Assembly: GCA_020633825.1 (NCBI GenBank) | Contig: JACKCV010000002.1 | Span: forward strand, 139,553 to 203,552 | Source: Fibrobacteria bacterium | GTDB lineage: Bacteria > Fibrobacterota > Fibrobacteria > UBA5070 | Direction of reading: 5' to 3' | DNA: 64,000 nt | Part shown: piece after piece, positions 3,029 to 27,034 of the stretch | How positions within the stretch are numbered: the stretch's first letter is position 1 | Layout of the letters: each line of letters opens with the position of its first letter | The notes under the pieces: generated by a model | Told to the model about the DNA's origin: nothing | Databases searched by the model: none | The model's input: only the letters and a program-made list of their open reading frames with translations | Program-made: the position numbers and the translations under genes

Positions 3029-3033
3029 TTGGG

Positions 3034-8542: not shown

Positions 8543-8557
8543 GCGACAAATTGCCGC
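8543..8557 (+). promoter_or_regulatory. Candidate RegA/PrrA-type box GCGAC-N5-GCCGC (imperfect dyad) in divergent promoter region
   Basis: Sits in the AT-richer 245-nt region between yicC and the Rieske/cyt-b operon; fits the GCGNC-N5-GNCGC pattern recalled for PrrA/RegA sites. Confidence 0.2.
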
Positions 8558-8630
8558 ATTGTTCATCGGGGGCAAGTCAATGATCATTGCTAGCCAACGA
8601 TGACCGCCCAAATCCACGGAAAGGCGACCC

Positions 8631-9791
8631 ATGATTGACCCTCTTCTCCGCATCGGAGGCGCCCTGGTGATGGCCGGGAACATGCCTCCGGCGGATTCGC
8701 TCGCGCTCCCGGCTCCGGTCTGGCTCCTCAAGACCCTGCACGACCTCACCCTCGCCTTGCACTTCGGTGCCCTCCACCTCCTGGTGGGCGGATTGGCCCT
8801 GGTGGTGGTCTGGAACCTGGTCGGTCATCTGCGCAAGGACGAGGCGACCCGCAGGTCTTCCGAAGTGGTCGCCCGGAAACTCCCCGTGGTGACCACCTAC
8901 GTGATCAACCTCGGGGTTCCACCGCTCCTGTTCGCCCAGGTCCTCTACGGCCAGGCGCTCTACACCAGTTCCGTCCTGATGGCCGCCTGGTGGTTTTCCG
9001 CCGTGTTCCTCATCATGGGCGCCTACGCGATCCTGTACCGCATGGCCTACCTGGCCGACAAGGAGCGCCCGTTCTGGTGGTGGGCGATCGCGGCCGCGGC
9101 GGTCCTTTCCTTCGTCGGACGTCTCTTCTCCGGAAACATGACCCTCATGCTGCGCTCCGAGTCCTGGAACGCCCTCTACGCGGCCGATCCCCACGGCATG
9201 TCGCTTCCCGCCGATCCCACCACCTGGCCCCGCCTGATCCTCATGTTCCTTTCCTTCATCGGATTGGGAGCCCTGGGCACGTCCCTGTGGGCCAACATCG
9301 ACAATGCGCGCGGAGTGGCCGCGGCGTTGCGCCGCAAGAGCGCCCTGGTCGCGGTGGTGGTCCTTCCCGCCGTGCTGTTCGCGGGGCTGCGAGCCATGGG
9401 GGTCCAGCCCGTCGGTGTGCAATCCGCGGTCTTGGGATCCCCCCTGGGACATGCGCTTTCGTGGGTCTGGATCGGCTCCATCGCCACCGCCTTCCTGGTC
9501 GCCGCCGCGCTGGCCTGGAAACCCGTCGGTTGGATCTCCTGGTTGGGGACGGTCCCCGCCTTGGGAGCTTTGGCGAGCCTGACCATCGTCCGCGACCTCG
9601 TTCGCGATGCCACGCTCGGTCCGCAAGGTTTGGACGTCTGGGCCTCGGTGGTGCACACCAACTGGACCTTGGTCTGGATCTTCCTCGTGACCCTGGTCCT
9701 GGGGCTCGCCTTCGTGGCCTGGATCGGCGTCGTCATCGGGCGCGCCACACCCGCATCCTCGCTCACTTCCGCGGAGGGATCCCATGTCTGA
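8631..9791 (+). CDS. Polytopic membrane protein (~10 TM, uncharacterised), first gene of Rieske/cyt-b operon
   Basis: Hydrophobic helices throughout; stop overlaps the Rieske start by 8 nt (translational coupling). Confidence 0.6.
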   Translation: MIDPLLRIGGALVMAGNMPPADSLALPAPVWLLKTLHDLTLALHFGALHLLVGGLALVVVWNLVGHLRKDEATRRSSEVVARKLPVVTTYVINLGVPPLLFAQVLYGQALYTSSVLMAAWWFSAVFLIMGAYAILYRMAYLADKERPFWWWAIAAAAVLSFVGRLFSGNMTLMLRSESWNALYAADPHGMSLPADPTTWPRLILMFLSFIGLGALGTSLWANIDNARGVAAALRRKSALVAVVVLPAVLFAGLRAMGVQPVGVQSAVLGSPLGHALSWVWIGSIATAFLVAAALAWKPVGWISWLGTVPALGALASLTIVRDLVRDATLGPQGLDVWASVVHTNWTLVWIFLVTLVLGLAFVAWIGVVIGRATPASSLTSAEGSHV

Positions 9792-10266
9792 GAACCAAAA
9801 CACCTCCGGATCCACGGAACAAGGTGCCTCCTCCGAACGTCGCACCTTCCTGAAGGTCGCGGCTTGCGGCGTGGGTGCCGCTTGGGCGGGGATGGTGGGA
9901 TACCCGATCTACCGCTACATCGCCTCGCCCGTCGAAGAAGCCGCATCCGCCGATGTGGTGACGGAAGTCGAGGTCGAGAAAGGGGCGGAGCTTCCCAAGA
10001 ATGCGGCCTTGATGTTCAAGTTCGGCACCAAGCCGGCGATGCTGATCCACCACGACGACGACACCTGGTCGGCGTTCCTGGCGGTCTGCACCCACCTGGG
10101 ATGCACTCCGGCCTACCAGCCGGAAGAGAAGCGGATCTTCTGTCCCTGCCATTCGGGGGTCTACGACGCCCATTCCGGCGCCAATGTGGCCGGCCCTCCG
10201 CCCAAGCCCCTTCCCCAGTTCAAGGTCGCTGTCGCCGACGGAAAGGTTGTGGTGTCCCGTGCCTGA
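9784..10266 (+). CDS. Rieske [2Fe-2S] iron-sulfur protein with Tat signal
   Basis: 'SERRTFLK' twin-arginine signal; 'CTHLGC' and 'CPCHSG' Rieske boxes. Confidence 0.9.
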   Translation: MSENQNTSGSTEQGASSERRTFLKVAACGVGAAWAGMVGYPIYRYIASPVEEAASADVVTEVEVEKGAELPKNAALMFKFGTKPAMLIHHDDDTWSAFLAVCTHLGCTPAYQPEEKRIFCPCHSGVYDAHSGANVAGPPPKPLPQFKVAVADGKVVVSRA

Positions 10267-11356
10267 GTCCCTCGGTCCGAAAGTCTACTCCTGGCTCGAT
10301 GAGCGCTTGGGATTGTCGCCCATTCTCGAGCTCGCCCTGAAGAAGCGGGTTCCCGACCACAAGCACTCCTTCTGGTACTACTGGGGAGGCATCACGCTGT
10401 TCTTCTTCATCGTGATGTGTTTCACAGGCGTCCTCCTGCTGCTGTATTACCGTCCCGGCGACGGGGCCTACGAATCGGTCCAGCAGATCAACACCCAGAT
10501 CAAGTTCGGATGGCTCATCCGCTCCATCCACTCCTGGTCGGCCAATCTCATGGTGGCGGCCGCATTCGTGCACATGTTCAGCACCTTCTTCATGAAGGCC
10601 TACCGGGCACCGCGCGAATTCCTCTGGTGGTCGGGCTTCGGTCTGCTCAGCCTGGCCATGGTCTTCGGATTCTCGGGGTACCTCCTGCCGATGGACGACC
10701 TCGCCTACTTCGCGACCAAGGTGGGATTGTCCATCCCGGCGGTGATGCCGGTCGTCGGTCCTTGGATCGCCGATCTCGTGCGCGGTGGACCGGACATCAC
10801 GGCCTACACGATTTCCCGCTTCTTCGCCTTGCACGTGGTGATCCTCCCCGCGTTGTTCATTCCCCTGCTGCTTCTCCACCTCGGTCTGGTCCAGCAGCAC
10901 GGCATGTCGATCCCGGAATCGGAGCAGCAGAAGCCCGAAGCCGAGCGCAAGTCCATCCCGTTCTTCCCGAACTTCGTGTTCAAGGACCTCGCCGTCTGGC
11001 TGGTGGCCCTCAATGTCCTGGCCTTGTTGGCCGTGGCCTTCCCTTGGCCTCTGGGACCGGCGGCCGATCCGTTGGCGCCGGCTCCGGCCGACATCCATCC
11101 GGAGTGGTACTTCATGAGTTCCTTCCAGATCCTCAAGGCCTTCGGCGGTTGGTTCCCCGGTGTGGTCGGGGAATTCCTGGGGATCGCCTTCTTCAACGCC
11201 GGTGTCGTGTTGTGGGCCTTGGTGCCCCTGTTCGACCCGAACACGAAATCGGGCCAGTGGGGGCGTCGCGTCACCTGGTTCGGATTCGTCGTCCTCGCCG
11301 TCTTGATCGTGACCACCATTTGGGGCTACGCGGTTCTTCCCGCCGTGGCCCACTGA
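10259..11356 (+). CDS. Cytochrome b (b6-type with fused subunit-IV-like C-terminus)
   Basis: GTG start overlapping the Rieske stop (GTGCCTGA); 'FWYYWGGITLFFF', 'IRSIHSWSANLMVAAAFVHM' heme-ligand helices; 365 aa. Confidence 0.85.
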   Translation: MPESLGPKVYSWLDERLGLSPILELALKKRVPDHKHSFWYYWGGITLFFFIVMCFTGVLLLLYYRPGDGAYESVQQINTQIKFGWLIRSIHSWSANLMVAAAFVHMFSTFFMKAYRAPREFLWWSGFGLLSLAMVFGFSGYLLPMDDLAYFATKVGLSIPAVMPVVGPWIADLVRGGPDITAYTISRFFALHVVILPALFIPLLLLHLGLVQQHGMSIPESEQQKPEAERKSIPFFPNFVFKDLAVWLVALNVLALLAVAFPWPLGPAADPLAPAPADIHPEWYFMSSFQILKAFGGWFPGVVGEFLGIAFFNAGVVLWALVPLFDPNTKSGQWGRRVTWFGFVVLAVLIVTTIWGYAVLPAVAH

Positions 11357-11368
11357 GGAGACGCACCC

Positions 11369-12733
11369 ATGAACTATCCTGCCTGGGACGTACCCTATCT
11401 CGGCTCCGGATGGATGATCGGCATCGTCGCCATCATCCACATCCTGATCTCCCACTTCGCCGTGGGTGGCGGCATCTTCCTTCCCCTGACCGAGGCCAAG
11501 GCGCTTCGCGAAGGCCGCAAGGATTGGATGTTGCGCCTGAAAGGCTACTCCAAGTTCTTCCTCGTGCTCACCGGCGTGTTCGGCGCCATGACGGGCGTGG
11601 GGATCTGGTTCGCCATCGGACTGGCCAGCCCCAACGGCACCAGCGCCCTCATCCACAACTTCGTGTTCGGCTGGGCGATCGAGTGGGTGTTCTTCCTCGT
11701 GGAACTCACCTTGGCGATGGTCTACTACTACACCTGGGACCGCATTCCCGCGAAGCTCCACCTGACCATCGGATGGATCTACGCCGCGGTTTCCTGGGGA
11801 ACCCTGGTGATCATCAACGGCATCCTCACCTTCAAGCTCACTCCCGGGCCGGAGTGGATGGCGTCGGTCGGAACGGGGCGCGAATCCGAGTACTTCTTCG
11901 ACGCGTTCTTCAACGCGGGCTACCTCCCCAGCCTGGGGCTGAGGACGCTCGCCTGCCTTTCCCTGGCGGGAATCTGGTCGCTGTACTTCTTCAGCCGCCT
12001 CGACGGGGAATCCGACGGCAAGACCAAGGCCAGCATGGTGCAGTGGTCCTCGATGTTCCTGATTCCGTCCTTCCTCCTGATGCCCGTGTTCTTCGCCTGG
12101 TACGTCTTCACGATCCCGGCCGACCATCGCGCCCTGCTGGAACTCGGAATCTCCAGCGCTTCCGCCGGGACCTTCACCCACGTCACGCGCATGACCATCC
12201 TTTCGGTGGTGAGTTCCGCGACCATCGCCCTGGCGGTCATGTTCTTCGCCTGGTTCCAGCCCACGGAACTCAAGCGCGGACACGCCCTTTCCATCCTGTT
12301 TTTGGCCCTGCTCGCCACGGGTTCGACGGAAAGCGTCCGCGAATTCCTGCGCAAGCCGTTCGTGGTGAACGGGTACATGTACTCCAACGGCGTGCGCGTG
12401 AACCAGATCGAGGGATTCAATCGCGACGGCTACCTCACGGGATCGGTCTGGTCGCCGGTGTCCCCCGACGCGGCCTTCCACCACAAGTCGGTGGGGGAGA
12501 GGATGTTCCAGGGCCAGTGCATGGCCTGCCACACCCTCGACGGATACCGTCCCATCCGCAAGCTGCTGGCGGGTCGGGACACCACCTCGATCGGAAGCGT
12601 CCTGAAGATGCTCCACGACAACGCCCCGGAGAGCCCCTACCGGAAGTTCATGCCGCCTCTGGTGGGAACCGAGGAGGAGATCCGCGCCCTCCGGGATTGG
12701 CTCGCCGTGCAGGTCGCTCCGGCTTCCCACTGA
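11369..12733 (+). CDS. Integral membrane protein with C-terminal mono-heme c-type cytochrome domain (CxxCH)
   Basis: ~370-aa multi-TM N-domain plus 'FQGQCMACHTLDGYRP'; 12 nt after cyt b. Confidence 0.7.
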   Translation: MNYPAWDVPYLGSGWMIGIVAIIHILISHFAVGGGIFLPLTEAKALREGRKDWMLRLKGYSKFFLVLTGVFGAMTGVGIWFAIGLASPNGTSALIHNFVFGWAIEWVFFLVELTLAMVYYYTWDRIPAKLHLTIGWIYAAVSWGTLVIINGILTFKLTPGPEWMASVGTGRESEYFFDAFFNAGYLPSLGLRTLACLSLAGIWSLYFFSRLDGESDGKTKASMVQWSSMFLIPSFLLMPVFFAWYVFTIPADHRALLELGISSASAGTFTHVTRMTILSVVSSATIALAVMFFAWFQPTELKRGHALSILFLALLATGSTESVREFLRKPFVVNGYMYSNGVRVNQIEGFNRDGYLTGSVWSPVSPDAAFHHKSVGERMFQGQCMACHTLDGYRPIRKLLAGRDTTSIGSVLKMLHDNAPESPYRKFMPPLVGTEEEIRALRDWLAVQVAPASH

Positions 12734-12759
12734 TCCCTTCGCCCCTCCCCCCCACCGCC

Positions 12760-13308
12760 TCATCGCGGAGGGGGGAAGCGGGCGAGCTTGCGCTGCAGGG
12801 ACCGGCGGTCGATTCCCAGTTCGCGGGCCGCACGGGACACGTTCCCGTCGCAGTCGGCCAGTACGCGGTGGATGTGCTCCCATTCCACGCGATCCAGGGA
12901 GGGCGTCTCGATCCGGATCGATTCCTGCTTTCCCTCGAGGACGGCGGCGATCTGGTTCCCGTCCAGGGGTTTGGTGCGGTAGTCCGATGCGCCCGCGCGG
13001 ACGGCTTCCAGCGCCGAGGCGATGCTGCCGTAGCCGGTGAGGACCACGATGGTCGCGTCGGGCAGGATCTGTCGCAAGGCCGTCACCAGGTCGAGACCGT
13101 TCTCCTGGCCCAGGCGCAGGTCGACCAGGACGTGGTCGGGTGCGTTGCGTTGGGCGTTCTGGATGGCCGCGGCCCGGTTCGAGCATGTCCACACCTCGTA
13201 CCCGCGCCGGCGCATGGAAAGCCCCAGTCGTTCCCGATAGGCGTCCTCGTCGTCGACGATCAGGAGCTTCCCGCGGGGGCCTTCCCCCGGTTGGGCCTGG
13301 GAGGTCAC
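12760..13308 (-). CDS. RegA/ActR/PrrA-family response regulator (REC + Fis-type HTH)
   Basis: GTG start overlapping the kinase stop (GTGA); 'KLLIVDDED', 'DLRLGQENGLDL', C-terminal 'SRAARELGIDRRSLQRKL'; 182 aa. Confidence 0.85.
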   Translation of the reverse strand: MTSQAQPGEGPRGKLLIVDDEDAYRERLGLSMRRRGYEVWTCSNRAAAIQNAQRNAPDHVLVDLRLGQENGLDLVTALRQILPDATIVVLTGYGSIASALEAVRAGASDYRTKPLDGNQIAAVLEGKQESIRIETPSLDRVEWEHIHRVLADCDGNVSRAARELGIDRRSLQRKLARFPPPR

Positions 13309-14585
13309 GACCCCATCTCCGCGTCGGGCACCCGCAGTTCCGCCGTGGTTCCTTCCCCTGGGCGGGAGGTCACCTTCAAGGTTCCTCCGCAACGATCCGC
13401 GAACGTCCGCACCAGGAAAAGCCCCAGACCCATCCCCTTCCCGGGGCCCTTGGTCGACAGGAACGGCTCGCCCAGGCGCGGGAGCAGATCCGGAGGGATC
13501 CCTTCCCCCCTGTCGCGCACGGTGAAGACCGAGTCGTTGGCTTCCCGCCGAAACGACATGTCCACGACTCGACCCTCCGGAGACGCCTCCACGGCGTTCT
13601 TCACCAAGGTGACCAGGGATTGGATCAGAGGGGCTTCCGGAAGCACCATCTGGACATCCCTTTCCAGACGAGGCGGAACCAGGCGGGCGGAAAGCGAGGG
13701 ATGGAGTGCTTCGGAGAGGGCGGCGAGGATCTGGGAGAGGGACGTGCGGACGGGGCCGTCCCCGATTCCCGAAGTGGTGTGGCTGCCCAGGCGATCCAGG
13801 ATGCGTCGGCACCGGTCCACCTCCGATCGGATCAACAAGGCATCGTCGCGCCACTGGTCGGAAGGGGTGTCCGCAGGGAGGGAGGCGAGGTCCGCCGAGG
13901 CCACGGCGATGGTTCCCAACGGGGATGCCAGTTCGTGGGCCACTCCCGCCGCCAACGTGGCCAGGGATGCGAATTGGCGATCTCGCAGGGCCCGATGGCG
14001 CCATTCGCCGAGATCGCGTTCCTGAGATTCGAGGGCATGGCGGAGGTTGGCGACGAAGTAGGCGATGGAAGTTCCGACCAGGGCCAGCGCGGCCAGGTTT
14101 CCGATTCGCTCCAGACGGGGAGCGATGGGCCATGGGGGGGAGGTGGTCTGCACGAGGGCTCCGGCCACCACCAGCAGCAGGAAGAACCACATGTGGGAGC
14201 GGGGAACCAGGACGGCGGCCATCGCCAGGTGGAGAAGGAAGAACAGGGTGAACGGATTGGTGGTGCCCCCCGTGAACCACAGCATTCCCGTGAGGACCAG
14301 GGTGTCGATCCCGAGCAGGCCCGAGATCCAGGACCCCGCATGGATCCCTTCCCGTCGGGAGCGATGGTGCAGGAACATGTTGCTCAGCAAGGTGAAGCCG
14401 AGGAATCCCGACAGGGGGAGCCAGGGAAGATGGATGCCATCCAATTGCGAGGCGAAGGCGCAGGTGCTGGCCTGTCCCGCGAGGGCGGCCCACCGGAGGC
14501 GGAGCAGCCACCGCAAGCCGGGGTGGGCGTTCTCGGCGTTCGTGCCGCCGGGAAAACCGCCGAGGTTCTTCAGTCGGTTCGGCAT
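13305..14585 (-). CDS. RegB/PrrB-family redox-sensing histidine kinase
   Basis: 6-TM N-domain with 'GGTTNPF' (GGxxNPF quinone-site motif); H-box 'AGVAHELASPLGTI'; G-box 'GMGLGLFLVRTF'. Confidence 0.8.
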   Translation of the reverse strand: MPNRLKNLGGFPGGTNAENAHPGLRWLLRLRWAALAGQASTCAFASQLDGIHLPWLPLSGFLGFTLLSNMFLHHRSRREGIHAGSWISGLLGIDTLVLTGMLWFTGGTTNPFTLFFLLHLAMAAVLVPRSHMWFFLLLVVAGALVQTTSPPWPIAPRLERIGNLAALALVGTSIAYFVANLRHALESQERDLGEWRHRALRDRQFASLATLAAGVAHELASPLGTIAVASADLASLPADTPSDQWRDDALLIRSEVDRCRRILDRLGSHTTSGIGDGPVRTSLSQILAALSEALHPSLSARLVPPRLERDVQMVLPEAPLIQSLVTLVKNAVEASPEGRVVDMSFRREANDSVFTVRDRGEGIPPDLLPRLGEPFLSTKGPGKGMGLGLFLVRTFADRCGGTLKVTSRPGEGTTAELRVPDAEMGS

Positions 14586-14670
14586 GGTGCCGCCGGGCGG
14601 AGGGGAACGAGGTGGGGGCCGGTACTCGTGCGAAGTGGCGCGGTGGAGCTGGCGGGCACGGTCGGGAGGA

Positions 14671-15024
14671 TCAGAGGAGGTTGCAGGCCTGCCTGCCGTC
14701 CTGCAGGGTCGGATAGATGGGGATGATGCTCCCGAGGCTCGCGACCTGGAAGACCTCGAGGATGTCCGAGCGGTTTTCCACGAGGAACATCTGCGAGGAT
14801 TTCTTGCGGAACCCCAGGGCGTAATCGATGATCCCCGCCAGGCAACAGCTTCCGAGCAGTTCCAGACCCGTGGTGTCCATGGCCAGGGGCAGGGGTGGTT
14901 CCATCGACATCAAATCGGAGAGGACGGCCCGGAATTGCGCGAGTTGAGGCATCGCGAAATCGGTTCCCTCCAGATGGAGCACCCGGAGATTCGGGAGCGT
15001 TTCAACAGTGAAGAGACAGCCCAT
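14671..15024 (-). CDS. STAS domain protein (anti-sigma-factor antagonist-like)
   Basis: 117-aa SpoIIAA-like pattern, immediately upstream and co-directional with the RegB-like kinase. Confidence 0.45.
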   Translation of the reverse strand: MGCLFTVETLPNLRVLHLEGTDFAMPQLAQFRAVLSDLMSMEPPLPLAMDTTGLELLGSCCLAGIIDYALGFRKKSSQMFLVENRSDILEVFQVASLGSIIPIYPTLQDGRQACNLL

Positions 15025-15098
15025 GGAAGAAAGCTAGGACCCTGGTGGCGGCTGTCAACCGACCATCCACACGATTGCGCGACCTGCGGGGAGTGCGA

Positions 15099-16883
15099 TC
15101 AGGCCAACAGCCCGATCTTGCGGATGGACTCGATGGCGACATCCCTCCGCTCCCCGGTGGACAGGAGGATCGCTTCCAAGGTGGCCGGTTCCCGGCGACG
15201 GTCGACACGAAGCGGGCGCAGCCGCATGGCCCTGCCCGGCGGTGTTTTGAGCACGACCTCGATCTCGTTCTCGGTGAGTGCCGCGTATTCCGCCAATTTC
15301 ATGCAATCGGCGTAATCGAGTTCCCGCAAACCGGTGCCGGCGTAGCGCGAGCTAGATCCGGGGATGGTGCGCGAGACCATCTCCCCGTTGGGCCAGGACC
15401 ATCGATGCTCGCGCAGTTCGGGTTCCGGGGCGGGGGATTTCCACGGGTGGACCGGTGCGCTGCTGGGGTCTTCGGGAGGGAAGTACCCCAGGCTCGAAAG
15501 CAGCCTGCGGATGGTGGGTTCCTGGGTCGGATCGATCAGGAAGCCCCAGTCCGGGATGGTTTCGAGAGTGAGCGAGAGGAACGCGTCGAGCGCGCAGAGT
15601 TGGCGGTGGCGCAGCGGGTCGGCGATGCGCAGGAGCCTGGCGGATTCGAACCTGCACGCGCGACGGGTGGCGAGCCATTCCTCGAGTTGGACGAGGACCG
15701 CGGCCGGAGGCGCCAGATCCTCGAGCAGGGTCGGAATGCGTCCGGCCCAGGATTCGAGGGCGGCGGCGGCCAGCACCTTGTCCCGATCGAGCTTCCATCG
15801 GGAGACCAGGTCGGCGGACTCGCGTTTCCCGAGGAAGGACGCGTCCCGATGATGCCCGAGGGGGGACTGCGGGGCCAGGAAGATCTGCAGATCGGACGTG
15901 CACCACCAGGTGCGTTCCGCTCGTGGATGGATGGAATCGATCCACGGCCACACGAAGACCAGGTCTCCCTGGGCGCACTCCCGTTCGAGGATGCCGACCA
16001 CCAGGGCTTCCCGCAGGAGTCGGGGAAGTTGGGTCCAGCTCCGGCCGGTGGGCCCGGGAACCAGCAGGCCTTCCCGGCGGAAGAACAGGCGTGCGGCGAA
16101 GTCGGCGTCGGCCCCGTCGGGAAGATTGGTGGCGATCCAGTCCTTGATGCCGCCGGTTCGCCGCTCGCGCGACTCCCACCAGCGCAGAGCGAAGTCCGGG
16201 CGATCGTCCAGGGAGGCGAGCCAGGTCGGCAGGTCCGGGGAGGATTCCAGGGCCCCATCCCTTCGCAGCAGGAGACCCTGGTCGGAGAGGAAGTCGAGAG
16301 CCAGGTCGAGGGCCATTTCCTGCGCCCCTTCGCCGAGGTCGGACAGGTGCGAAAAAATTTCGCGCAGAGTCGGTCTGTCGCGACGATTCAGGGAACCGTC
16401 GCGGTTCAGTCGAGCTCCCCCGAGGTCGATGGCGGCGGAGAGCGATGCGATCGATTCGAGGAAGGCGCGCGAGGCGTGGCGTTGTCCCTGGGGCCTCTCG
16501 CGGGGGGGGATGTCGAAGGTCTGCGCGGCGGCCACGACGGTGGGGGTGAGGTCGATCACGGGGTGCCAGGTCGGCGGCTCCTCGCGATCCAGGATGATGA
16601 CAAATTCCGACGCAAGGGTCTCGAGATCCTGCCTGTCCTCGGGAGCGAAGGCCTCGCAGGGGATTCCGCCCTCGCCGGCGAGATGGATGTCGAGCGCGAT
16701 GGCGGCGGTGGACGGGGAGTCGCGCAGGAGCGGTTCGATCCTCTCGCCGGAAACCATCCAGGCCTCGATCTCCAGGTTGATCCTGCTGCGTTGCACCAGG
16801 CCTTCTCTGCCGAGGCGATGGGCGTGGAGGGAAGCGATTTCTCCCTGGGGAACCTGATCGAGAAGCTGACGTACAGATGGCAT
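15099..16883 (-). CDS. Hypothetical protein (594 aa)
   Basis: Minus-strand frame has balanced L/E/D/A composition; the overlapping plus ORF is G/R/P-rich. No recognisable motif. Confidence 0.4.
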   Translation of the reverse strand: MPSVRQLLDQVPQGEIASLHAHRLGREGLVQRSRINLEIEAWMVSGERIEPLLRDSPSTAAIALDIHLAGEGGIPCEAFAPEDRQDLETLASEFVIILDREEPPTWHPVIDLTPTVVAAAQTFDIPPRERPQGQRHASRAFLESIASLSAAIDLGGARLNRDGSLNRRDRPTLREIFSHLSDLGEGAQEMALDLALDFLSDQGLLLRRDGALESSPDLPTWLASLDDRPDFALRWWESRERRTGGIKDWIATNLPDGADADFAARLFFRREGLLVPGPTGRSWTQLPRLLREALVVGILERECAQGDLVFVWPWIDSIHPRAERTWWCTSDLQIFLAPQSPLGHHRDASFLGKRESADLVSRWKLDRDKVLAAAALESWAGRIPTLLEDLAPPAAVLVQLEEWLATRRACRFESARLLRIADPLRHRQLCALDAFLSLTLETIPDWGFLIDPTQEPTIRRLLSSLGYFPPEDPSSAPVHPWKSPAPEPELREHRWSWPNGEMVSRTIPGSSSRYAGTGLRELDYADCMKLAEYAALTENEIEVVLKTPPGRAMRLRPLRVDRRREPATLEAILLSTGERRDVAIESIRKIGLLA

Positions 16884-16931
16884 GTATACGGGAGATAAAT
16901 ACCTTCAACCGATGGCGACATCCCTGACGCT

Positions 16932-17720
16932 GTGAAAGGACGTTCTGAATGGGTCACGATCCATTGGCAAAGCCCGTTGAAAACCCGCAGTCCGAAGACC
17001 CCCGGGACAACGCCTCCCGAACGGAATCCGACCATGGGGCGGAAGGTTTCCTGGCTCGTGGCGAGGAGGCCTGCGGTCGTGGTGCGTGGGTCGAGGCGCG
17101 GGGGGGGGTGGGGGGGGGGCGCGGGCGCGGAGGGGGGGGGGGGGGGGGCCCGCGACCTGGATCCGTGGGGATGGAAACCCCTCCAGGGGATCGGGATCGC
17201 GCTTTTCTGGTTGGGGAAGAGGGACGATGCCTGGAAGCACCTCGTGGAAGCGTTGCGGAGGGCTCCCGACGAGCCGGACAACGTCGCCAACGTGCTGGAC
17301 GTCGCTCGATCGCTGGGCAGGGAAGCGGAAGCCGAGGCCATCCTCGCCGAACTTCGTCGTTCCCTGCCCGCACCCACCGCGGCTTCGCCTGCCGAGCCCT
17401 TTTGCGTGAAGGGTGAGGAAATGCTCGGTGCCGAGCTCTGGCGGGAGGCCGTGCAACCGTTCCTCCAAGCCATCGACAGCGATCCCGAGCGGTCCCGGGC
17501 CTGGAGCGGGCTGGGCATCGCCTGCTTCCGGGATGGGAAGGCGAAGGCGGCCACGGCCTTCTTCGAAATCGCCCTCCGCCTCGATCCGACGGACCAGGAC
17601 GCCGTCCTCAACTGGGCCGAAGCGTGCGGTCGTCCCGGAGACGACCTCGAATCCTTCCTGGTTTCCGCGGGCGTCTCCCCGGATCTTGCCGCGCGGGCTC
17701 GCGCCGAGGTCTCCGGTTGA
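16932..17720 (+). CDS. TPR-repeat protein (N-terminus uncertain; long poly-G tracts in the 5' part)
   Basis: TPR-like helices 'AWSGLGIACFRDGKAKAATAFFEIALRLDPTDQDAVLNWAEA'; residues before the G tract are low complexity. Confidence 0.5.
   Translation: MKGRSEWVTIHWQSPLKTRSPKTPGTTPPERNPTMGRKVSWLVARRPAVVVRGSRRGGGWGGGAGAEGGGGGARDLDPWGWKPLQGIGIALFWLGKRDDAWKHLVEALRRAPDEPDNVANVLDVARSLGREAEAEAILAELRRSLPAPTAASPAEPFCVKGEEMLGAELWREAVQPFLQAIDSDPERSRAWSGLGIACFRDGKAKAATAFFEIALRLDPTDQDAVLNWAEACGRPGDDLESFLVSAGVSPDLAARARAEVSG
17101..17150. repeat. Homopolymeric G tracts G9-T-G9-C-GCGGGCGCGG-A-G17
   Basis: Read directly from the sequence; within/near the 5' end of the TPR gene. Confidence 0.9.
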
Positions 17721-19042
17721 AGCTGGGAGCACGACCCGCCGCGAAGGACCTCCCTCTTTCGATCTGCCTGATCGTCAAGAACGAGGAGGCGAACCTCCCG
17801 GCGTTGCTGGAATCCCTCGCAGGCCTGGGGGCCGAGTTGATCGTGGTGGATACGGGATCCACCGATCGAACGGTGCAGATCGCCCAGTCCGCGGGGGCGA
17901 AGGTTCGCCATTTCTCCTGGACCGGGGATTTCGCCGCGGCACGGAACGTCTCCCTCGAGGCCGCGACCCGTTCCTGGGTGATGTGGATGGATGCGGACGA
18001 TCGCCTACCCGCCTCCAGTCGGCCGGCGCTTCAGGCCCTGGTGGCGGCCCGACCGGAGAAGGCGTGGGCCTTTCTCGTGAAAAACACCACCAACGGGGGC
18101 GCCACGGGTTCCGAGTTCTCCCAGATCCGCCTGTTTCCCAACCACCCTCGCATCCGATTCACGGGCGCCGTCCACGAGCAGGTGTTCCCGGCTCTGGCCG
18201 CCCTGGGCATTCCCTTCGAGTACTCCACCCTGGTGGTGCACCACACGGGGTACATCGATGCCGATACGGTGCGGGCCAAACAAGTTCGGAACCGGGAAAT
18301 CCTCGAACGGGAGGTGGTGCGCAACGGCGGCCACGCCATCACGCTCTACCAGTTGGGGGCCGCCCACGCCGATCTCGGCAACGCCGTCGAAGCCGAACGA
18401 CGGTTTCGCGAATCCTTGAAGGCGGTGGAGAACGGCGACCCCGACGTCCATCTGAAATCCCTGGTCCCGGCCTACGCGGCGACCTTGTTCACCAAGAAGG
18501 AGGACTGGGCGGGAGCGCGTCGATTGCTCGAGGAATTGCTCGATCCCGACGTTTCCCTGTGGCATCCCAGCCAGATCGCCATTGCCGCGCAGGTCTGGTT
18601 GCGGACCGGTTCCATCGAGGAAGCGGTGGGTTGGTTCGAGAAAGCCTACACGCCCCCGCAGGCGAAGGTGCTCCTGCCGGTGGATCCCAAGGTCGCGTCG
18701 GTGCAGCCCCTGCAGAACCTTGCCGAATATTGGAAGGGAGTGGGGAACGAGCCTCTGGCCACGGAAATCCTGCTGTTGCTGAAATCGGTCCTGGAAAACC
18801 GTTTTCCGCCGCGACGTGCCATCCCCGACGCGTACATGCGCCACGGGCAGGCCTCGCGCGCCGCCGAACTCTACGCCTGGTGCATCGATCGCGACGGGGA
18901 CGACCCCGCCCTGTGGGCCCCCTTGGTCCGAGCCACGGCCATCGCAGGGGATCCCGAGAACGCGGCGCGCTTCCTGGACGCCGGATTGGAGCGATGGCCT
19001 GGGGACGAGGGCCTTCGCGCTCTGGCGCGCGGGGAGTTCTGA
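17717..19042 (+). CDS. GT2-family glycosyltransferase with C-terminal TPR domain
   Basis: 'LSICLIVKNEEANLPALL', 'VVDTGSTDRT', 'WVMWMDADD'; TTG start overlapping the upstream stop (TTGA). ORF track extends to 17624, so the start is uncertain. Confidence 0.7.
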   Translation: MKLGARPAAKDLPLSICLIVKNEEANLPALLESLAGLGAELIVVDTGSTDRTVQIAQSAGAKVRHFSWTGDFAAARNVSLEAATRSWVMWMDADDRLPASSRPALQALVAARPEKAWAFLVKNTTNGGATGSEFSQIRLFPNHPRIRFTGAVHEQVFPALAALGIPFEYSTLVVHHTGYIDADTVRAKQVRNREILEREVVRNGGHAITLYQLGAAHADLGNAVEAERRFRESLKAVENGDPDVHLKSLVPAYAATLFTKKEDWAGARRLLEELLDPDVSLWHPSQIAIAAQVWLRTGSIEEAVGWFEKAYTPPQAKVLLPVDPKVASVQPLQNLAEYWKGVGNEPLATEILLLLKSVLENRFPPRRAIPDAYMRHGQASRAAELYAWCIDRDGDDPALWAPLVRATAIAGDPENAARFLDAGLERWPGDEGLRALARGEF

Positions 19043-19157
19043 ATCGTCCTTCCCCTCCCCGGCCGGGGTGGAGGAAGGTACCCCTCGCCCCCGGCGAGGG
19101 CTGCCGCGCCCAGGTCGAGCCCGGGGCTTGGAAGGCGTTCCCGCGGCGGGACCTCCC

Positions 19158-20630
19158 TCAGTCTCCTTCGACGAGTCGCTCGACCCCGGGCAATCCCCCG
19201 GCCCAGGCGGGAGCTCCCCGGGCGAATCTCCTGACCTCCTCTTCCCTGCCGGCCGCGAGTTCCTTCTCGAGGATGTCCGCGATGCGATGGAACAATTCCT
19301 GGCGCGGGAAGCCTGGATCGATGCGCCAAGGCGCGGCTCCGGAGCGGATGTCCTCCACCAGGCGTGAGGAGGCCTCGTCGACATCCCGGGGGGGATGGTC
19401 CGGTGGGAGGCCGCCGACACGTCGCTTCAGATCGCGGTGACGGAGGATGGACGGGTTGGTTCCGCGTACCGTCCGAGCCAGGAGATTCGAGGCCGATTCG
19501 CGATCTCCCAGGAGGAGGAAGGCGGCCGCCAAGTCGGCGACCGTTTCGGCATCGTCGGAGTTCGCTTTCAGCGCCGATTCCATGGAAGGAAAGGCGGCCT
19601 CGACCTGGCCCATGGCGACGAGAAGGAGAGCCCGCAGCGAGGGAAGGCTCGAGGAGCGGTCCAAGGCCTCTTCCATCCGTCCGAGTCCGAACAGCAGACG
19701 CGCCTCGAGCCGCGCGTCGGGTGCCGCATCGAGCCATTCGAGAGCTCCAACCCTGTTTCCGCGCGCCTCTTCGAGGCGGGCGACGGCGGTCCGGAAGTCG
19801 GAATCCCCCTGGCACTCCTCCTCGAATTCCCGCGCGCATTCGAGGGCAGCACCCAACTCGCCGTTCGCCCACAGGTCCAGACTCGCTCCCGCCACGGCCC
19901 GCGGCCACCAGGGCCATTGCCGCCGGAGGGAGGTGCCGCGTCGCCGCGCGTCCTCGATGCAGGCCGTCCACGCCTGGGACGTCTCCCATTCGAGGAGTGG
20001 ATCGAAGAGCCCCTCCAAGGTGACGGCGAGCTTGAACAGGTCGTAGGCGTCGGAGGCGCCGCGGTCCCTGCTGGATCGAAGAATGCGAAGGTTCCGCTCC
20101 AGCTTCCCCCGGGAGGCGACCACATCGTCCTGGTAGCCGTGGTGGATCAGGCGAAGGTCGAGGGGGGATGGGGCCGGGAGGGAGGATTCGGCCAGCGCAT
20201 CCAGGATGGTCTCGTGCAGGGCGTGCGTGTAGCGCAGCCGTGGGTCGCGGCGAAACAGGCGGGGTTGCCGGACGACCTCGATCCCCCCACCCCCCCGGAG
20301 TTCGACTTCGACCAGGTGGCAGACCGCCGGACCGGCTCCCAGGCTCTCCAATGCCGAGCGCCGGGGAGGGCACAGCTCCTCGTCGGCGTCGATCTGGAGG
20401 ATCCATTCCCCGCGGGCCATCTCCAGGCAGGCGTTGCGCGCCCGGCTGAAATCGTCCATCCATTCGACCGACCCGATCCGGGCCCCGTGGGAGCGGGCGA
20501 TCTCGAGGGTCCGGTCCTTCGATCCGGTGTCGAGCAGGCAGATCTCGTCGACGATCCCGTGGAGGGAGGCGAGGCAACGGTCGAGGAATCGTTCCTCGTC
20601 GCGGACGATCAGGCAGGCGGAGATGGTCAT
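19158..20630 (-). CDS. GT2-family glycosyltransferase with C-terminal TPR domain (paralog, convergent)
   Basis: ATG at 20630; 'MTISACLIVRDEERFL', 'LLDTGSKDRT', 'ILQIDADEEL'; 490 aa. Confidence 0.8.
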   Translation of the reverse strand: MTISACLIVRDEERFLDRCLASLHGIVDEICLLDTGSKDRTLEIARSHGARIGSVEWMDDFSRARNACLEMARGEWILQIDADEELCPPRRSALESLGAGPAVCHLVEVELRGGGGIEVVRQPRLFRRDPRLRYTHALHETILDALAESSLPAPSPLDLRLIHHGYQDDVVASRGKLERNLRILRSSRDRGASDAYDLFKLAVTLEGLFDPLLEWETSQAWTACIEDARRRGTSLRRQWPWWPRAVAGASLDLWANGELGAALECAREFEEECQGDSDFRTAVARLEEARGNRVGALEWLDAAPDARLEARLLFGLGRMEEALDRSSSLPSLRALLLVAMGQVEAAFPSMESALKANSDDAETVADLAAAFLLLGDRESASNLLARTVRGTNPSILRHRDLKRRVGGLPPDHPPRDVDEASSRLVEDIRSGAAPWRIDPGFPRQELFHRIADILEKELAAGREEEVRRFARGAPAWAGGLPGVERLVEGD

Positions 20631-20770
20631 GCCCGGGAATCCTAGTTCCCGACGCGGGTCCTCCCCAAACGCAAAGGACCGCCCTCCCGTGGAAGGGAGA
20701 GCGGCCCTATCGTCGGGACGACCTCCGGACCGGGTCTCGAGCCCCGGTGCCGGAGGGCGAGCCAGCGCGA

Positions 20771-21595
20771 CTACCTCAGAAGACTCATGACGCCTTGCGG
20801 GAGCTGGTTGGCCTGGGCCAGCATGCTCTGGGCGGAATTGGTCAGGATCTGGTTGCGAGTGAACTTCGTGGTTTCCGTGGCGAAGTCCGTGTCGCGGATC
20901 CGACTTTCGGCGTCCGTCATGTTCGTGATCGAAACACCAAGGTTCGAGACGGTCTTTTCGAGCCGGTTCATCGCCGCACCCACATCGGAGCGCATGGAAA
21001 GAACGGACGTGAGAGCCGTATCGATGCTGTTGATCGCCGACTGCGCCGCCGACTGCGTACTGACCGCGCCGAGGCTGAGATCGCCGGCAAGGTTGGTCGC
21101 AAGGGAGAAGCTGATGGTCGAAGAACTGGCCGCGTTGCCCGACGAACCGGCGGCGGACACCTGGAAGGAGAAGGTCGACGTGGTCGACAGCAGATCCACA
21201 CCGTTGTAGGTGGTGGACTGTGCGATCCGCGTGATTTCCGACTTCAGTGCCGTGAATTCCGCCTGGATGTAGGAGCGGTCGGTATTGGTGTAGGTTCCGT
21301 TGGAGGATTGGATCGCCAGCTCGCGCATGCGTTGCAGGGAGTTGGTGATTTCCTGGGTCCCGGATTCCGCGATCTGGAGCATGGCCAGGGAGTCGTTCGA
21401 ATTTCGCTGGGCCGTCTGGCTGCCGCGGATCTGCGAACGCAGGCCCTCGGAGACGGAAAGACCGGCGGCATCGTCGGCGGCTCTGTTGATGCGAAGGCCC
21501 GTGGAAAGCTTCTCCAGGGACTTCGACATGGCCATGTTCGTCGTCGCGAGCGAATTCTGGGCATTCGTCGCGTTGACGTTGTTGTAGATGCGCAT
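20771..21595 (-). CDS. fliC: Flagellin (274 aa)
   Basis: N-terminus 'MRIYNNVNATNAQNSL...LSTGLRINRAADDAAGLSVSEGLRSQI'; C-terminus 'LAQANQLPQGVMSLLR'; GGAGG RBS. Confidence 0.92.
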   Translation of the reverse strand: MRIYNNVNATNAQNSLATTNMAMSKSLEKLSTGLRINRAADDAAGLSVSEGLRSQIRGSQTAQRNSNDSLAMLQIAESGTQEITNSLQRMRELAIQSSNGTYTNTDRSYIQAEFTALKSEITRIAQSTTYNGVDLLSTTSTFSFQVSAAGSSGNAASSSTISFSLATNLAGDLSLGAVSTQSAAQSAINSIDTALTSVLSMRSDVGAAMNRLEKTVSNLGVSITNMTDAESRIRDTDFATETTKFTRNQILTNSAQSMLAQANQLPQGVMSLLR

Positions 21596-21700
21596 GATGC
21601 ACCTCCATGTGGTCGTTCAAGACAGGACAGCGTCCTTGCCGTCCATCCCGGATCCCTCCGGACGCCCGCCTCGCGGTTGGAGACCGGAGTTCCCCTCATA

Positions 21701-21730
21701 CTTATCGGATGAATCATTCTTGCGTTTTAG
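21701..21730 (-). promoter_or_regulatory. Sigma-28 (FliA)-like promoter TAAAACGC-N12-TCCGATAA upstream of flagellin 1
   Basis: Minus-strand reading 'CTAAAACGCAAGAATGATTCATCCGATAAG', ~105-135 nt upstream of the ATG. Confidence 0.5.
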
Positions 21731-21836
21731 CCTTTATTCATCGGCATTCGCGAGTCGGCTAGACAGAAAACGACAAAGACCGCGCAGCCCGAAGGCGGCG
21801 CGGTCCCGAGTGCCTGGAAGGCTCTTCAGGGGGTCA

Positions 21837-22661
21837 TCAACGCAGCAGGCTCATGACGCCCTGCGGGAGCTGGTTGGCCTGGGACAACATGCTCTGCGCG
21901 GAGTTGGTCAAGATCTGATTGCGGGTGAACTTCGTGCTCTCCATCGCGAAGTCGGTGTCGCGGATGCGGCTTTCCGCGTCGGTCATGTTGGTGATGGCCA
22001 CGCCGAGGTTCGAGACGGTCTTCTCCAGGCGGTTCATGGCGGCACCCACGTCCGACCGCATCGAAAGCACCGAGGTCAGGGCCGTGTCGATGCTGGTGAT
22101 GGCCGTCTGCGCCGCCGACTGGGTGCTGACCGCACCGAGGGAGAGGTCTCCCGCGAGATTGGTTGCCAGGGAGAAGCTGATCGTCGAGGAGCTCGCCGAG
22201 GCTCCGGCGGATCCGGCCGCGGAGACCTGGAAGGAGAAGGTCGAGGTGGTGGAGAGCAGATCGACGTTATTGTAGGTCGTGCTCTGGGCGATGCGGGTGA
22301 TTTCCGACTTCAAGGCCGTGTATTCGGCCTGGATGTAGGAACGGTCCGTGTTGGTGTAGGTGCCGTTGGAGGACTGGATGGCCAATTCCCGCATGCGCTG
22401 CAGGGAGTTGGTGATCTCCTGGGTTCCGGATTCCGCGATCTGGAGCATGGCGAGAGCGTCGTTGGAATTCCGCTGGGCCGTCTGGCTGCCGCGGATCTGC
22501 GAACGCAGACCTTCGGAGACCGACAGACCGGCGGCATCGTCGGCGGCTCTGTTGATGCGTAGACCGGTGGAAAGCTTCTCCAGGGACTTCGACATGGCCA
22601 CGTTGGCGGTGGCGAGCGAGTTCTGGGTTCCAATGGCGTTGACGTTGTTGTAAATGCGCAT
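21837..22661 (-). CDS. fliC: Flagellin (274 aa; ~95% identical to copy 1)
   Basis: 'MRIYNNVNAIGTQNSL...'; start picked inside ORF 21837..23042; GGAGG RBS. Confidence 0.92.
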   Translation of the reverse strand: MRIYNNVNAIGTQNSLATANVAMSKSLEKLSTGLRINRAADDAAGLSVSEGLRSQIRGSQTAQRNSNDALAMLQIAESGTQEITNSLQRMRELAIQSSNGTYTNTDRSYIQAEYTALKSEITRIAQSTTYNNVDLLSTTSTFSFQVSAAGSAGASASSSTISFSLATNLAGDLSLGAVSTQSAAQTAITSIDTALTSVLSMRSDVGAAMNRLEKTVSNLGVAITNMTDAESRIRDTDFAMESTKFTRNQILTNSAQSMLSQANQLPQGVMSLLR

Positions 22662-22783
22662 GATGTCCAACCTCCGTGTCGGGCGTATGCAGGTGACGAC
22701 GCTTCCGGGAGAGGCTCCCGGAAGTTCCCTTCTTCGGTGGTTTCCTCCATCCTTGGAGGTCCCTTCCGACTCTTCTTCCATTC

Positions 22784-22810
22784 TTTCGGCGATTTGGCGG
22801 CGCGACTTGA
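22784..22810 (-). promoter_or_regulatory. Weak sigma-28-like promoter TCAAGTCG-N12-GCCGAAAG upstream of flagellin 2
   Basis: Minus-strand reading of 'ctttcggcgatttggcggcgcgacttga'; partial match to consensus. Confidence 0.3.
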
Positions 22811-23076
22811 GGGTTTTTTGGCGATCCAGGGGGGAAGGACGGAGCGATGCCGCCTCCCTGCGGTCCTGGGGAGGGAGGCGTCTCCGCGCCGCCGAGGAGG
22901 GGCAACCGCGCCGCGGAGGCGTCTTCGGGGGAATGCGTAGCTCCCGACCGATCGGTCGATCCCGGGGGGGGGCGGGGCGTTCGGCCAGAAAGGCCAAAGC
23001 CCGCCCCGGTAGATCCGGGACGGGCTCGAGGGATCTCCCCAAGGGAGGAGGGAGGAGAGGGGAGACCCCGTTTCGA

Positions 23077-23883
23077 TCACTTCAAGAGGGACATCACGTT
23101 GTTGGGCAGCTGGTTGGCCTGGGCCAGCATGCTGGTGGCCGACTGGTTGAGAATCTGGTTGCGCGTGAACTGGGTGGACTCGGTGGCGAAGTCCGTGTCG
23201 CGGATGCGGCTTTCCGCGTCGGCGTAGTTGGTGATCATCACGCCCAGGTTGTTCACCGTCTTCTCCAGCCGATTCATGGTGGAGCCGATGGTGGAGCGCA
23301 GCGACAGCACCGAGGTCAGGGCCGTGTCGATGGTGGAGATCGCGGCTTGGGCCAGGCTCTGGCCGGAAACCGCACCCAGGGTGAGTCCGGTCAGGTCCAC
23401 GGCGGTGAAGGAGATGGTCGAGGAGTTCCCCGATCCGGCCGAGGAGACCTGGAAGGAGAACGGAGTGGAACCGGCCAGCAACTGCACGTCGTTGTAGGTG
23501 ACGGACTGCGCGATGCGGGTGATTTCGGAGGCGAGCGCGTCGTATTCGGCCTGGATGTACTGGCGCTCGTGGTTGGTGTAGGTTCCGTTGGCCGATTGGA
23601 TGGCCAGTTCCCGCATGCGCTGCAGGGAGTTGGTGATCTCCTGCGTTCCACCTTCGGCGATCTGCAGCATCGCCAGCGCATCGTTGGAGTTGCGGCGGGC
23701 CATGTCGGAGCCGCGGATCTGCGAACGCAGCCCTTCGGACACGGACAGGCCGGCGGCGTCGTCGGCGGCGCGGTTGATGCGAAGTCCGGTGGACAACTTC
23801 TCCAGGCTCTTGGACATCAGGCGGTTGGATGTCATCAGCGAGTTCTGGGTGTTGATGGAGTCGACGTTGTTATAGATGCGCAT
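23077..23883 (-). CDS. fliC: Flagellin (268 aa; diverged third copy)
   Basis: 'MRIYNNVDSINTQNSLMTSNRLMSKSLEKLSTGLRINRAADDAAGL...NNVMSLLK'; start picked inside ORF 23077..23991. Confidence 0.9.
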   Translation of the reverse strand: MRIYNNVDSINTQNSLMTSNRLMSKSLEKLSTGLRINRAADDAAGLSVSEGLRSQIRGSDMARRNSNDALAMLQIAEGGTQEITNSLQRMRELAIQSANGTYTNHERQYIQAEYDALASEITRIAQSVTYNDVQLLAGSTPFSFQVSSAGSGNSSTISFTAVDLTGLTLGAVSGQSLAQAAISTIDTALTSVLSLRSTIGSTMNRLEKTVNNLGVMITNYADAESRIRDTDFATESTQFTRNQILNQSATSMLAQANQLPNNVMSLLK

Positions 23884-24047
23884 GGGGAAACCTCCCTGTT
23901 TTGGAGCTTGCGGGCCGGCCCGCACGGCTTCCCTGCCGCGACGAGATCCGGAAGAAGCGGTTCGCGGTTCCGGCGCTTTGGGTGTTTCCACCCGCGCGAA
24001 CCTGCTTCCTGGATTGGTTGTTGGTTTGCCGGAAATTCATGGTGCGC

Positions 24048-25145
24048 CTACATCACGACCAGTTCGGCCTGGAGGGCGCCGGACTTCTGGATGGCCTCGA
24101 GGATCGCGATCAAGTCGCGGGGCGAGGCTCCCAGGGTGTTGAGGGCGCGGGCGAGTTCGCCCACGTTGGTGGAGGCGGGGAGGACGCGGACCTGGTCCTG
24201 GCGTTCCTCCGTCTGGATGGAAGGGGTGGCGGTGGTCCGGGTCGTGCCGGCCGCGAAGGCGTTGGGTTGGCTGGTCTGGTAGCCCGGGTCGACCTTGATG
24301 GTCAAGGATCCGTGGGTGACGGCGACCTCGTCGATGAGGACGTCCGATCCGGCGACGATGGTGCCGGTGCGTTCGTTGACCACGATCCGGGCGGGCCGGT
24401 CCATCTCCACCCGGAGGTTTTCCAGCTTGGCGATCAGGGAGGCCCGGCCTTCCTTGGGTTCCTTGCCCGTGAACCGGACGCTCGCCGCATCTTCCGCGAT
24501 CGCGCTCCCCTTGCCGAAGGCGGTTTCGATGGAGGTGGCCAATGCGGAGGCGACCGTGAAGTCCGGGCTGCGCAGCGAAAGTCGGAGCGGTCCGTCGTCG
24601 AGACGGACGGCGAGGTTCTCCCGTTGGACGATGGCGCCGGCGGGGATGACGCCCGTGGCGGATTGTCCTTGCGAGATGCTGGCTCCGGCGAGTCCCCTCT
24701 CGATCCCGCCCGCGGTGCCCAGCGGACCTTGGGCGACGGCGTAGAGTTCGCCATCCGGCCCCTTGAGCGGAGCCATCAGGAGGACGCCGCCGGTGAGGGA
24801 GCGTGCGTCGCCCATGGAGGAGACGTGGACGTCCACGCGCCCACCGGGTTTGGCGAAGGGAGGAAGGTCGGCCGTCACCAGGACCGCCGCGACATTGCGA
24901 AGCCGGATCTGGTTGCGGTCCACTTCCAGGCCCATGTTGCGCAAGAGGTTCAAGGTGGAGCGCTGGGTCACTCCCGATCCGGGGCCGTCCCCCGTACCGG
25001 CCAGTCCGACGACGAGTCCGTAGCCGAGGAGAGGCGTGCGGGAGACGCCCTGGACATCGGCCATGTCCTTGACCCTGACCTGCTGGCTCTGGACGGAAAC
25101 CGTCAGCAGCAGCACGGCGAACGGGATGTGGAACGCGGCGCGCAT
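24048..25145 (-). CDS. flgI: Flagellar P-ring protein FlgI
   Basis: Signal peptide then 'VKDMADVQGVSRTPLLGYGLVVGLAGTGD'; 365 aa; ATG overlaps the flgH stop (TGATG). Confidence 0.9.
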   Translation of the reverse strand: MRAAFHIPFAVLLLTVSVQSQQVRVKDMADVQGVSRTPLLGYGLVVGLAGTGDGPGSGVTQRSTLNLLRNMGLEVDRNQIRLRNVAAVLVTADLPPFAKPGGRVDVHVSSMGDARSLTGGVLLMAPLKGPDGELYAVAQGPLGTAGGIERGLAGASISQGQSATGVIPAGAIVQRENLAVRLDDGPLRLSLRSPDFTVASALATSIETAFGKGSAIAEDAASVRFTGKEPKEGRASLIAKLENLRVEMDRPARIVVNERTGTIVAGSDVLIDEVAVTHGSLTIKVDPGYQTSQPNAFAAGTTRTTATPSIQTEERQDQVRVLPASTNVGELARALNTLGASPRDLIAILEAIQKSGALQAELVVM

Positions 25146-27027: not shown

Positions 27028-27034
27028 GCCCGGC

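Follow-up and report, generated by a model that had tools for sequence, protein, structure and literature searches.

A G-rich block inside a TPR gene of a Fibrobacteria metagenome-assembled genome is probably a short-read G over-calling artefact

Introduction

In Campylobacter jejuni, the flagellar glycosylation locus (Cj1295, maf genes) carries polyG/polyC tracts inside open reading frames (ORFs), and the length of a tract sets the reading frame (PMC3068675, PMC4965091, PMC8355987). These tracts are single runs of about 7–13 G in an AT-rich genome, differ by ±1 between cells and are kept as tracts between strains. G runs also arise during sequencing, and the classical polyG artefact is a tail at the 3′ end of the read, which is removed by trimming and ends contigs. 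Nakamura et al. reportedly described, in Nucleic Acids Research in 2011, errors of Illumina sequencing that are sequence-specific and fall at inverted repeats and at GGC motifs. On two-colour Illumina instruments the absence of light is called as G, and signal dropout leads to G over-calling, in which T and C, as well as A, come out as G, and to polyG stretches (PMC6129281; PMC8002175).

Here we analysed a window of 64,000 nt (contig JACKCV010000002.1, positions 139,553 to 203,552) from the NCBI metagenome-assembled genome (MAG) of a Fibrobacteria bacterium, in which a sequence-only reading had drawn attention to long G tracts in a TPR-repeat gene near flagellin genes. The observation is true of the deposited sequence and most likely not of the organism.

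Results

The deposited block and its expectation by chance

The letters of the deposited window were read directly, and the block was located as follows:

17100–17148, plus strand: G-rich block (G9, T, G10, CGCGGGCGCGGA, G17)
17100–17108, plus strand: G9
17109, plus strand: T
17110–17119, plus strand: G10
17120–17131, plus strand: CGCGGGCGCGGA
17132–17148, plus strand: G17

The order in the window is GTCGAGGCGC-G9-T-G10-CGCGGGCGCGGA-G17-CCCGCGACC, and the tracts previously given as G9-T-G9...G17 are present, with the middle run being G10 and not G9. The GC content of the window was measured at 64.9%, compared to the genome value of about 70% that had been assumed. The chance of such runs was estimated from 600 windows simulated with Markov models (orders 1, 3 and 5) that had been trained on the window itself; in these, G/C runs of at least 9 nt were expected 5.1, 1.8 and 0.9 times per window, respectively, and G17 appeared in 0 of 600 windows, the longest simulated run being 15, which upholds the earlier description of G17 as extreme. 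Runs of 9–10 G or C are expected by chance in this window, and the presence of three long runs inside 49 nt lies far beyond chance.

The other long runs in the window were G9 at 22964 and G10 at 29392, and relatives carry G9 runs as well. The intergenic G10 (29392–29401) was exactly matched by an independent contig (L006) and is therefore real; the G9 (22964–22972), also intergenic and about 300 nt upstream of the second flagellin gene, lies outside the stretch covered by the fetched independent contigs. All eight G/C homopolymers of at least 8 nt in the whole window are G on the plus strand (0 C), and among runs of at least 7 nt the G:C ratio on the plus strand was 15 to 5. This excess of G over C among homopolymers may be due to skewed strand composition, to the orientation of the genes or to further errors biased towards G.

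By direct reading, G9-T-G10 alone satisfies the G-quadruplex motif (at least four runs of at least three G with short loops on one strand), so the motif that had been proposed is formally present in the deposited letters; yet the block is very probably not in the organism, and the motif is a moot point if the block is not real.

The block breaks a conserved TPR gene near flagellin genes

The genes around the block were the following:

15099–16883, minus strand: divergent conserved protein (565–609 aa in gene calls), syntenic in relatives
16949–17720, plus strand: TPR-repeat gene (227–237 aa in relatives), with a frame break at the block
17717–19042, plus strand: GT2 glycosyltransferase with C-terminal TPRs (441 aa, TTG start), syntenic in relatives
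19158–20630, minus strand: second GT2 glycosyltransferase (490 aa)
20771–21595, 21837–22661 and 23077–23883, minus strand: three tandem flagellin genes

The TPR gene runs in frame 2 from ATG 16949, which is preceded by the ribosome-binding site AAAGGA and is also the start in the gene call on the Logan contig, to 17098 (product MGHDP...AEGFLARGEEACGRGAWVEA), and in frame 0 from 17148, continuing as ARDLDPWGWKPLQGIGIALFWLGK..., to the stop codon at 17718–17720. Between the GCG codon ending at 17098 and the GCC codon starting at 17148 lie 49 nt where 18 are expected, and the frame is therefore broken by one base. The peptide GGGWGGGAGAEGGGGGA had been proposed as the N-terminus of the TPR protein, which puts the sequence upstream of the block in the wrong frame: homologues match frame 2 as far as ...AWVEA and frame 0 resumes only past the block, so GGGWGGGAGAEGGGGGA is not a real peptide. 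The upstream part of the frame behind it, which is the downstream frame, had no homology to the family, and the block is therefore inside the gene and not in a promoter. Thus, of the two placements offered earlier, N-terminus or promoter, the first stands in so far as the block lies within the ORF, 150 nt past the true start at ATG 16949, and the second does not.

A protein search returned 20 homologues (223–237 aa, 52–64% identity), all of which have exactly six residues, with the consensus KAFFEK, between W-x-E-A and A-R-E-L-D-P; this segment is the B helix of the first TPR. The DNA of relatives at the site reads GAGGC-nnn-GCC-TWC-TTC-GAG-AAR-GCC-CGC-GAG. No glycine run or G tract was present at the block site in any of the 20 homologues. 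Pfam matches after the block scored above the gathering score (TPR_16, 1.7e-11; TPR_2, 5.4e-9), and once RAVFEK was restored a TPR_19 match extended over the junction (residues 45–100, E = 7e-12), which was absent in the Gly-rich version. The repaired gene product would have about 246 aa. At NCBI the locus is annotated as MCB9496306.1, 'MAG: tetratricopeptide repeat protein', on a 629,050-bp contig, with 169 aa (window 17213–17720) and a start called past the block; the shortening to 169 aa comes about because the false insertion breaks the frame.

As deposited, the tract lies 150 nt inside an ORF in which a change of tract length would shift the frame; the frame is one base out, and the loss of one G or the gain of two would restore reading. 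These features could be read as a real contingency locus, in which slippage in G9, G10 or G17 would switch the TPR gene and the coupled GT2 gene, thereby varying flagellin glycosylation, with an ordinary allele co-existing in the population; the gene indeed heads a putative flagellin-glycosylation pair, as in Campylobacter polyG phase variation (PMC3068675, PMC8355987). However, the restored (ON) frame would have RGGVGGGRGRGGGGGG in place of the first TPR's helix B with its conserved FF, and the TPR_19 match over the junction is lost, so that the in-frame product would trade a conserved TPR core helix for 16 Gly/Arg residues. Moreover, slippage cannot turn an 18-nt normal allele into a 49-nt G block or back, and a tract is found in 0 of 20 homologues. 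The earlier proposal of a hypermutable, phase-variable tract is not borne out by these results, nor by the contig ends described below, which consist of ordinary codons.

The gene order was kept in five relatives' loci: a minus-strand gene for a protein of 574–609 aa without family match, TPR, GT2-TPR, GT2 (minus strand), three flagellins, flgI and flgH. When relatives' proteins were compared by tblastn, each of the 13–14 neighbouring genes compared gave one HSP in one frame, which indicates that the TPR N-terminus is the sole break and that the assembly has no frameshifts besides. The general homopolymer indel noise of a long-read assembly was considered as a source of the block and rejected, with neighbouring genes being in frame and the sequence being 100% identical to short-read contigs.

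The divergent gene at 15099–16883 is separated in its longest version from the TPR start by 65 nt, its minus-strand start lying no later than 16883. A Pfam and NCBIfam search of its protein gave no match, and the protein is a conserved partner of the flagellin-modification cluster, present in the MAG and in all five relatives' loci. On the other side, the TTG start of the GT2-TPR gene at 17717 overlaps the TPR stop TGA at 17718–17720 (TTGA), and the two genes are thus probably translationally coupled; an alternative GTG start at 17624, which would give a 97-nt overlap with the TPR gene, was unsupported by relatives or Logan gene calls.

The two GT2 proteins (17717–19042 and 19158–20630) both had as best NCBIfam match the SunS-family peptide S-glycosyltransferase, below cut-off (1e-13 and 4e-18, respectively), and TPR repeats were found in both. 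These SunS-like matches and TPRs are consistent with putative protein-directed glycosyltransferases acting on the adjacent flagellins. The flagellin paralogues (20771–23883) shared 74–92% identity with relatives' flagellins. Judged from context only, namely the synteny in five relatives and the flagellin neighbourhood, the TPR/GT2 pair may be described as putative flagellin-glycosylation genes; the TPR gene had been said to head a flagellin-glycosylation island, and it does head the TPR and GT2-TPR pair near the flagellins, the glycosylation role being assigned by that context.

Independent assemblies of the same organism do not reproduce the block

The window was compared with the Logan short-read assemblies of four runs (SRR12358675, SRR12358676, SRR14234111 and SRR14234115), in which an exact look-up found identical copies of FlgI, FlgH and cytochrome bd subunit I of the MAG. 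Logan contigs matched the window at 100.000% identity over 2068–17103, 17147–21434 and 23614–34855 (about 30 kb), and this identical stretch takes in G10 at 29392, G8 at 16502 and T8 at 29330. The sole difference outside the block was a SNP at 13350 (T in the MAG versus C in SRR14234115), and a single SNP across four runs indicates a nearly clonal population. Except for its first seven bases, which one run has, the stretch 17103–17146 was not reproduced by the independent contigs, and it was the only non-repeat stretch of the about 30 kb without reproduction: the left contigs (4/4) end at 17102–17109 and the right contigs (3/3) begin at 17144–17149. Every fetched contig of every run also breaks at 21434 and 23614, inside the flagellin paralogues, and these breaks are repeat-induced; the outer contig ends vary by run, which indicates coverage limits. 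The block is the only break common to all runs besides the flagellin repeats.

With left ends counted after GAGGCGCGGG (17102) and right ends before GGCCCGCGACC, the right-contig bases standing directly before GGCCCGCG, the four runs read as follows:

SRR14234115: left end CCGTCTT; on the right, no contig reaches the site
SRR12358676: left end GCG; right end AA
SRR12358675: left end none; right end none, the contig starting CCCGCG
SRR14234111: left end GGGGGGT; right end GAC

Four of the seven contig ends abutting the block thus had non-G sequence, two stopped at its edge, one had G9-T, and none was a tract length variant. Joining CCGTCTT to AAGG gives GAG GCG CGG GCC GTC TT. ... AAG GCC CGC GAC, or E-A-R-A-V-F..K-A-R-D-L-D-P, which is the family pattern, and relative to this CCGTCTT/AAGG allele the other end variants show changes to G in read orientation only. 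On the top strand CCG becomes GCG and CCGTCTT becomes GGGGGGT, and GAAGG becomes GACGG, the A to C change on the top strand being T to G in the reverse read. This strand orientation (A to C in the right contig L017, C to G in the left contigs) is consistent with errors that follow the direction of the read and concerns single contig-end bases only, and contig-end bases are the least reliable bases of de Bruijn contigs. The contig L018 of SRR14234111 carries the first seven block bases (G9-T); hence the G path occurs in two reads or more, and the MAG assembler alone did not invent it.

Two other allele reconstructions were tried, a real allele forming a perfect 12-bp palindrome (GACGGCC of L017 being the reverse complement of GGCCGTC in L011) and a third real allele from CGGGGCG of L009 (EARGAGAEK); both involve 2–3 contig-end bases, and single changes to G are simpler. 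A scan of metagenome contigs for both flanks 10–40 nt apart gave no match, and a literature search by run and protein accessions found no paper.

The contig ends bear on the contingency locus in both directions. The G9-T path is present in one independent assembly, and contigs break at the block in all four runs, as would also be expected from a true two-allele polymorphism. Against this, both alleles would have to occur in a population otherwise 99.99–100% identical over 30 kb, no tract length variant was found among the seven contig ends of four runs, and the same reads gave a clean assembly of the G10 elsewhere, so that a real G9-T-G10 should be traversable.

The same contigs bear on the possibility that the block is a fixed disruptive insertion, the TPR gene being a pseudogene in the MAG strain and the Logan runs representing a sister strain with an intact gene. 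The path was chosen by the MAG assembler, and the gene is frameshifted as deposited; however, the flanks are 100.000% identical over about 30 kb and therefore belong to the same strain, one Logan run has the start of the G path beside a normal-type right edge, and no known mutational process swaps 13 nt for G6-T-G10...G17. Together with the in-register match described next, which speaks against a real insertion, this makes a fixed insertion highly improbable.

The block matches the real downstream sequence masked by G

In all likelihood, the real sequence is GAG GCG CGG GCC GTC TT[C GAG] AAG GCC CGC GAC, which reads as E-A-R-A-V-F-E-K-A-R-D-L-D-P; the four bases in brackets, which the contigs leave out, follow if the allele is 18 nt, as in all homologues. 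The real continuation after 17102 was taken as CCGTCTTcgagAAGG, followed by the window from 17149, and the reconstructed allele has CCGTCTTCGAGAAGG for 17103–17148, such that the corrected contig would read EARAVFEKARDLDP. The stretch to be explained is then:

17103–17148, plus strand: 46 nt not reproduced, taken to be the next 45 real nt copied with G over-calls

These 45 nt read CCGTCTTcgagAAGGCCCGCGACCTGGATCCGTGGGGATGGAAAC, in which the four lower-case bases are those that we infer from the length of the allele. Every one of the block's first 25 nt is compatible in register with the real sequence, with bases otherwise turned to G: T17109, C17120, C17122 and C17126 match real bases, each real G is a G, and only 0.5% of random 25-mers of the window passed this in-register masking test. 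When the 46 nt were aligned with the next 45 real bases, five of six non-G bases matched (A17131 among them) with one 1-nt insertion (C17128), and the true base or G stood at 45 of 46 block positions. The gapped masking score was 15 (null, 4.0 ± 3.9), a value that 0.2% of random segments attained (P about 0.002). A scan of masking over all registers and both strands was a weak test, many registers reaching 24–25 of 25, and we therefore relied only on the natural register fixed beforehand and on the gapped alignment. The counterpart of the G17 run is TCCGTGGGGATGGAAAC, called as G. The contig then resumes at CCCGCGACC (17149), or position 16 in the real continuation; resumption there after 46 nt accounts for the 31 nt gained overall.

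That the non-G bases stand in register with the real downstream sequence (P about 0.002–0.005) is not to be expected of a real insertion. This is a further point against the contingency locus, which, with the evidence from homologues and contig ends, we consider very unlikely. Two observations run counter to simple masking by G: C17128 fits only with an extra 1-nt insertion, and G17-CCCGCG is a G run leading straight into correct sequence. Collectively, the block is very likely no part of the organism's genome, and is better described as a short-read G over-calling artefact. The caveat of an assembly or sequencing artefact in the sequence-only reading is thus borne out by the four independent SRA-run assemblies and by the in-register G masking.

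A strong hairpin is predicted at the site

The reconstructed allele places an inverted repeat across the site:

17090–17102, plus strand: left hairpin arm, GTCGAGGCGCGGG, continued by CCGTCT in the real sequence
17147–17163, plus strand: right hairpin arm, GGCCCGCGACCTGGATC

As single-stranded DNA the reconstructed allele had a folding energy of -19.1 kcal/mol (z = -4.2; 0 of 200 shuffles as stable), with a stem in which CGCGGGCC pairs with GGCCCGCG. The hairpin is a plausible trigger of sequence-specific read failure according to this folding model. An equally strong hairpin in the relative L003 was assembled normally, and the hairpin alone is therefore insufficient.

A palindrome is inherent in the codons for A-[FV]-F-E-K-A (GCC.TTC.GAG.AAG.GCC). 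Among relatives, the strong hairpin of L003 lies at 8078–8136 (-20.1 kcal/mol), and none was found in L001 or L004.

The hairpin would also suit an artefact of another kind, either a nanopore or PacBio stall at the hairpin called as G runs or a product of gap closing or scaffolding. A 629-kb contig would be in keeping with a long-read or hybrid assembly, and short reads would map poorly over a false 31-nt insertion, which would let it escape polishing. However, the G9-T path and the single changes to G are already found in the short-read Logan contigs, and base-by-base in-register masking by G is predicted by signal dropout and not by a stall. Such an origin is accordingly unlikely, and a long-read or gap-closing step is possible as the route by which the block entered the MAG.

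Discussion

The evidence above favours G over-calling in short reads, and a sequence of events can be proposed for it. The GC-rich hairpin of the real allele would cause some short reads entering the site to lose signal, after which most A, C and T would be called as G, as no signal means G in two-colour chemistry. Failing reads would thus give GGGGGGTGGGGGGGGGGCGCGGGCG(C)GGAG17 instead of CCGTCTTCGAGAAGGCCCGCGACCTGGATCCGTGGGGATGGAAAC, and the MAG assembler would take this false path for 46 nt before rejoining the true sequence at CCCGCGACC, probably via a common 'G-run + CCC' k-mer in the de Bruijn graph. The mis-join may have occurred where a G run and then CCC would be present both in the masked read (…AAAC|CCCT) and in the true sequence (…AAGG|CCCG). 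The outcome would be a false 31-nt insertion, a broken TPR frame and the truncated 169-aa NCBI protein. A simple 3′ polyG tail was rejected as the whole cause: it cannot yield G17 and then correct sequence on the same strand, and G17-CCCGCG therefore needs a mis-join. We infer both the physical cause (signal dropout at the hairpin, a two-colour instrument being assumed) and the exact assembly path, and the cause is less certain than the artefact reading as such.

Any real allele, with all such readings taken together, is unlikely. A real unstable G-rich allele beside the ordinary one, that is, a hairpin-associated mutational hotspot with Campylobacter-style phase variation in a free-living, high-GC, uncultured Fibrobacterota, is a distinctly unlikely case; if true, an environmental phylum would join those with SSR-type phase variation of flagellin glycosylation. 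Under the G over-calling reading, the locus illustrates that a polyG over-call can persist inside a long, otherwise perfect MAG contig, where it mimics a contingency locus or a G-quadruplex and leads to a mis-annotated, truncated GenBank protein (MCB9496306.1, 169 aa versus about 246). MAG scans for phase-variable tracts or G-quadruplex motifs should filter such blocks, for which two questions are useful: whether the non-G bases are in register with the downstream sequence, and whether the tract is present in orthologues.

Among known systems, the flagellar glycosylation locus of Campylobacter jejuni resembles the deposited locus in having a G tract in an ORF of a flagellin-modification locus, with the frame depending on tract length. 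Unlike the Campylobacter tracts, the block has three runs of up to 17 G at 65% GC, is absent from 20 homologues and shows no length variants, and independent assemblies carry the normal allele. The polyG over-calling of two-colour instruments (NextSeq, NovaSeq, MiniSeq) is similar in that there are base-to-G changes only and these are in register. It differs in that correct sequence follows the block within a 629-kb contig, such that a mis-join is needed as well, and in that two or more of the four runs are affected at one site, a recurrence that implies a sequence-specific trigger, probably the hairpin. The errors attributed to Nakamura et al. share with this site a setting of GGC motifs and a strong inverted repeat in the real allele, with errors that start right after it and may be strand-oriented; those errors are isolated substitutions on four-colour instruments, whereas here a 46-nt stretch is masked by G.
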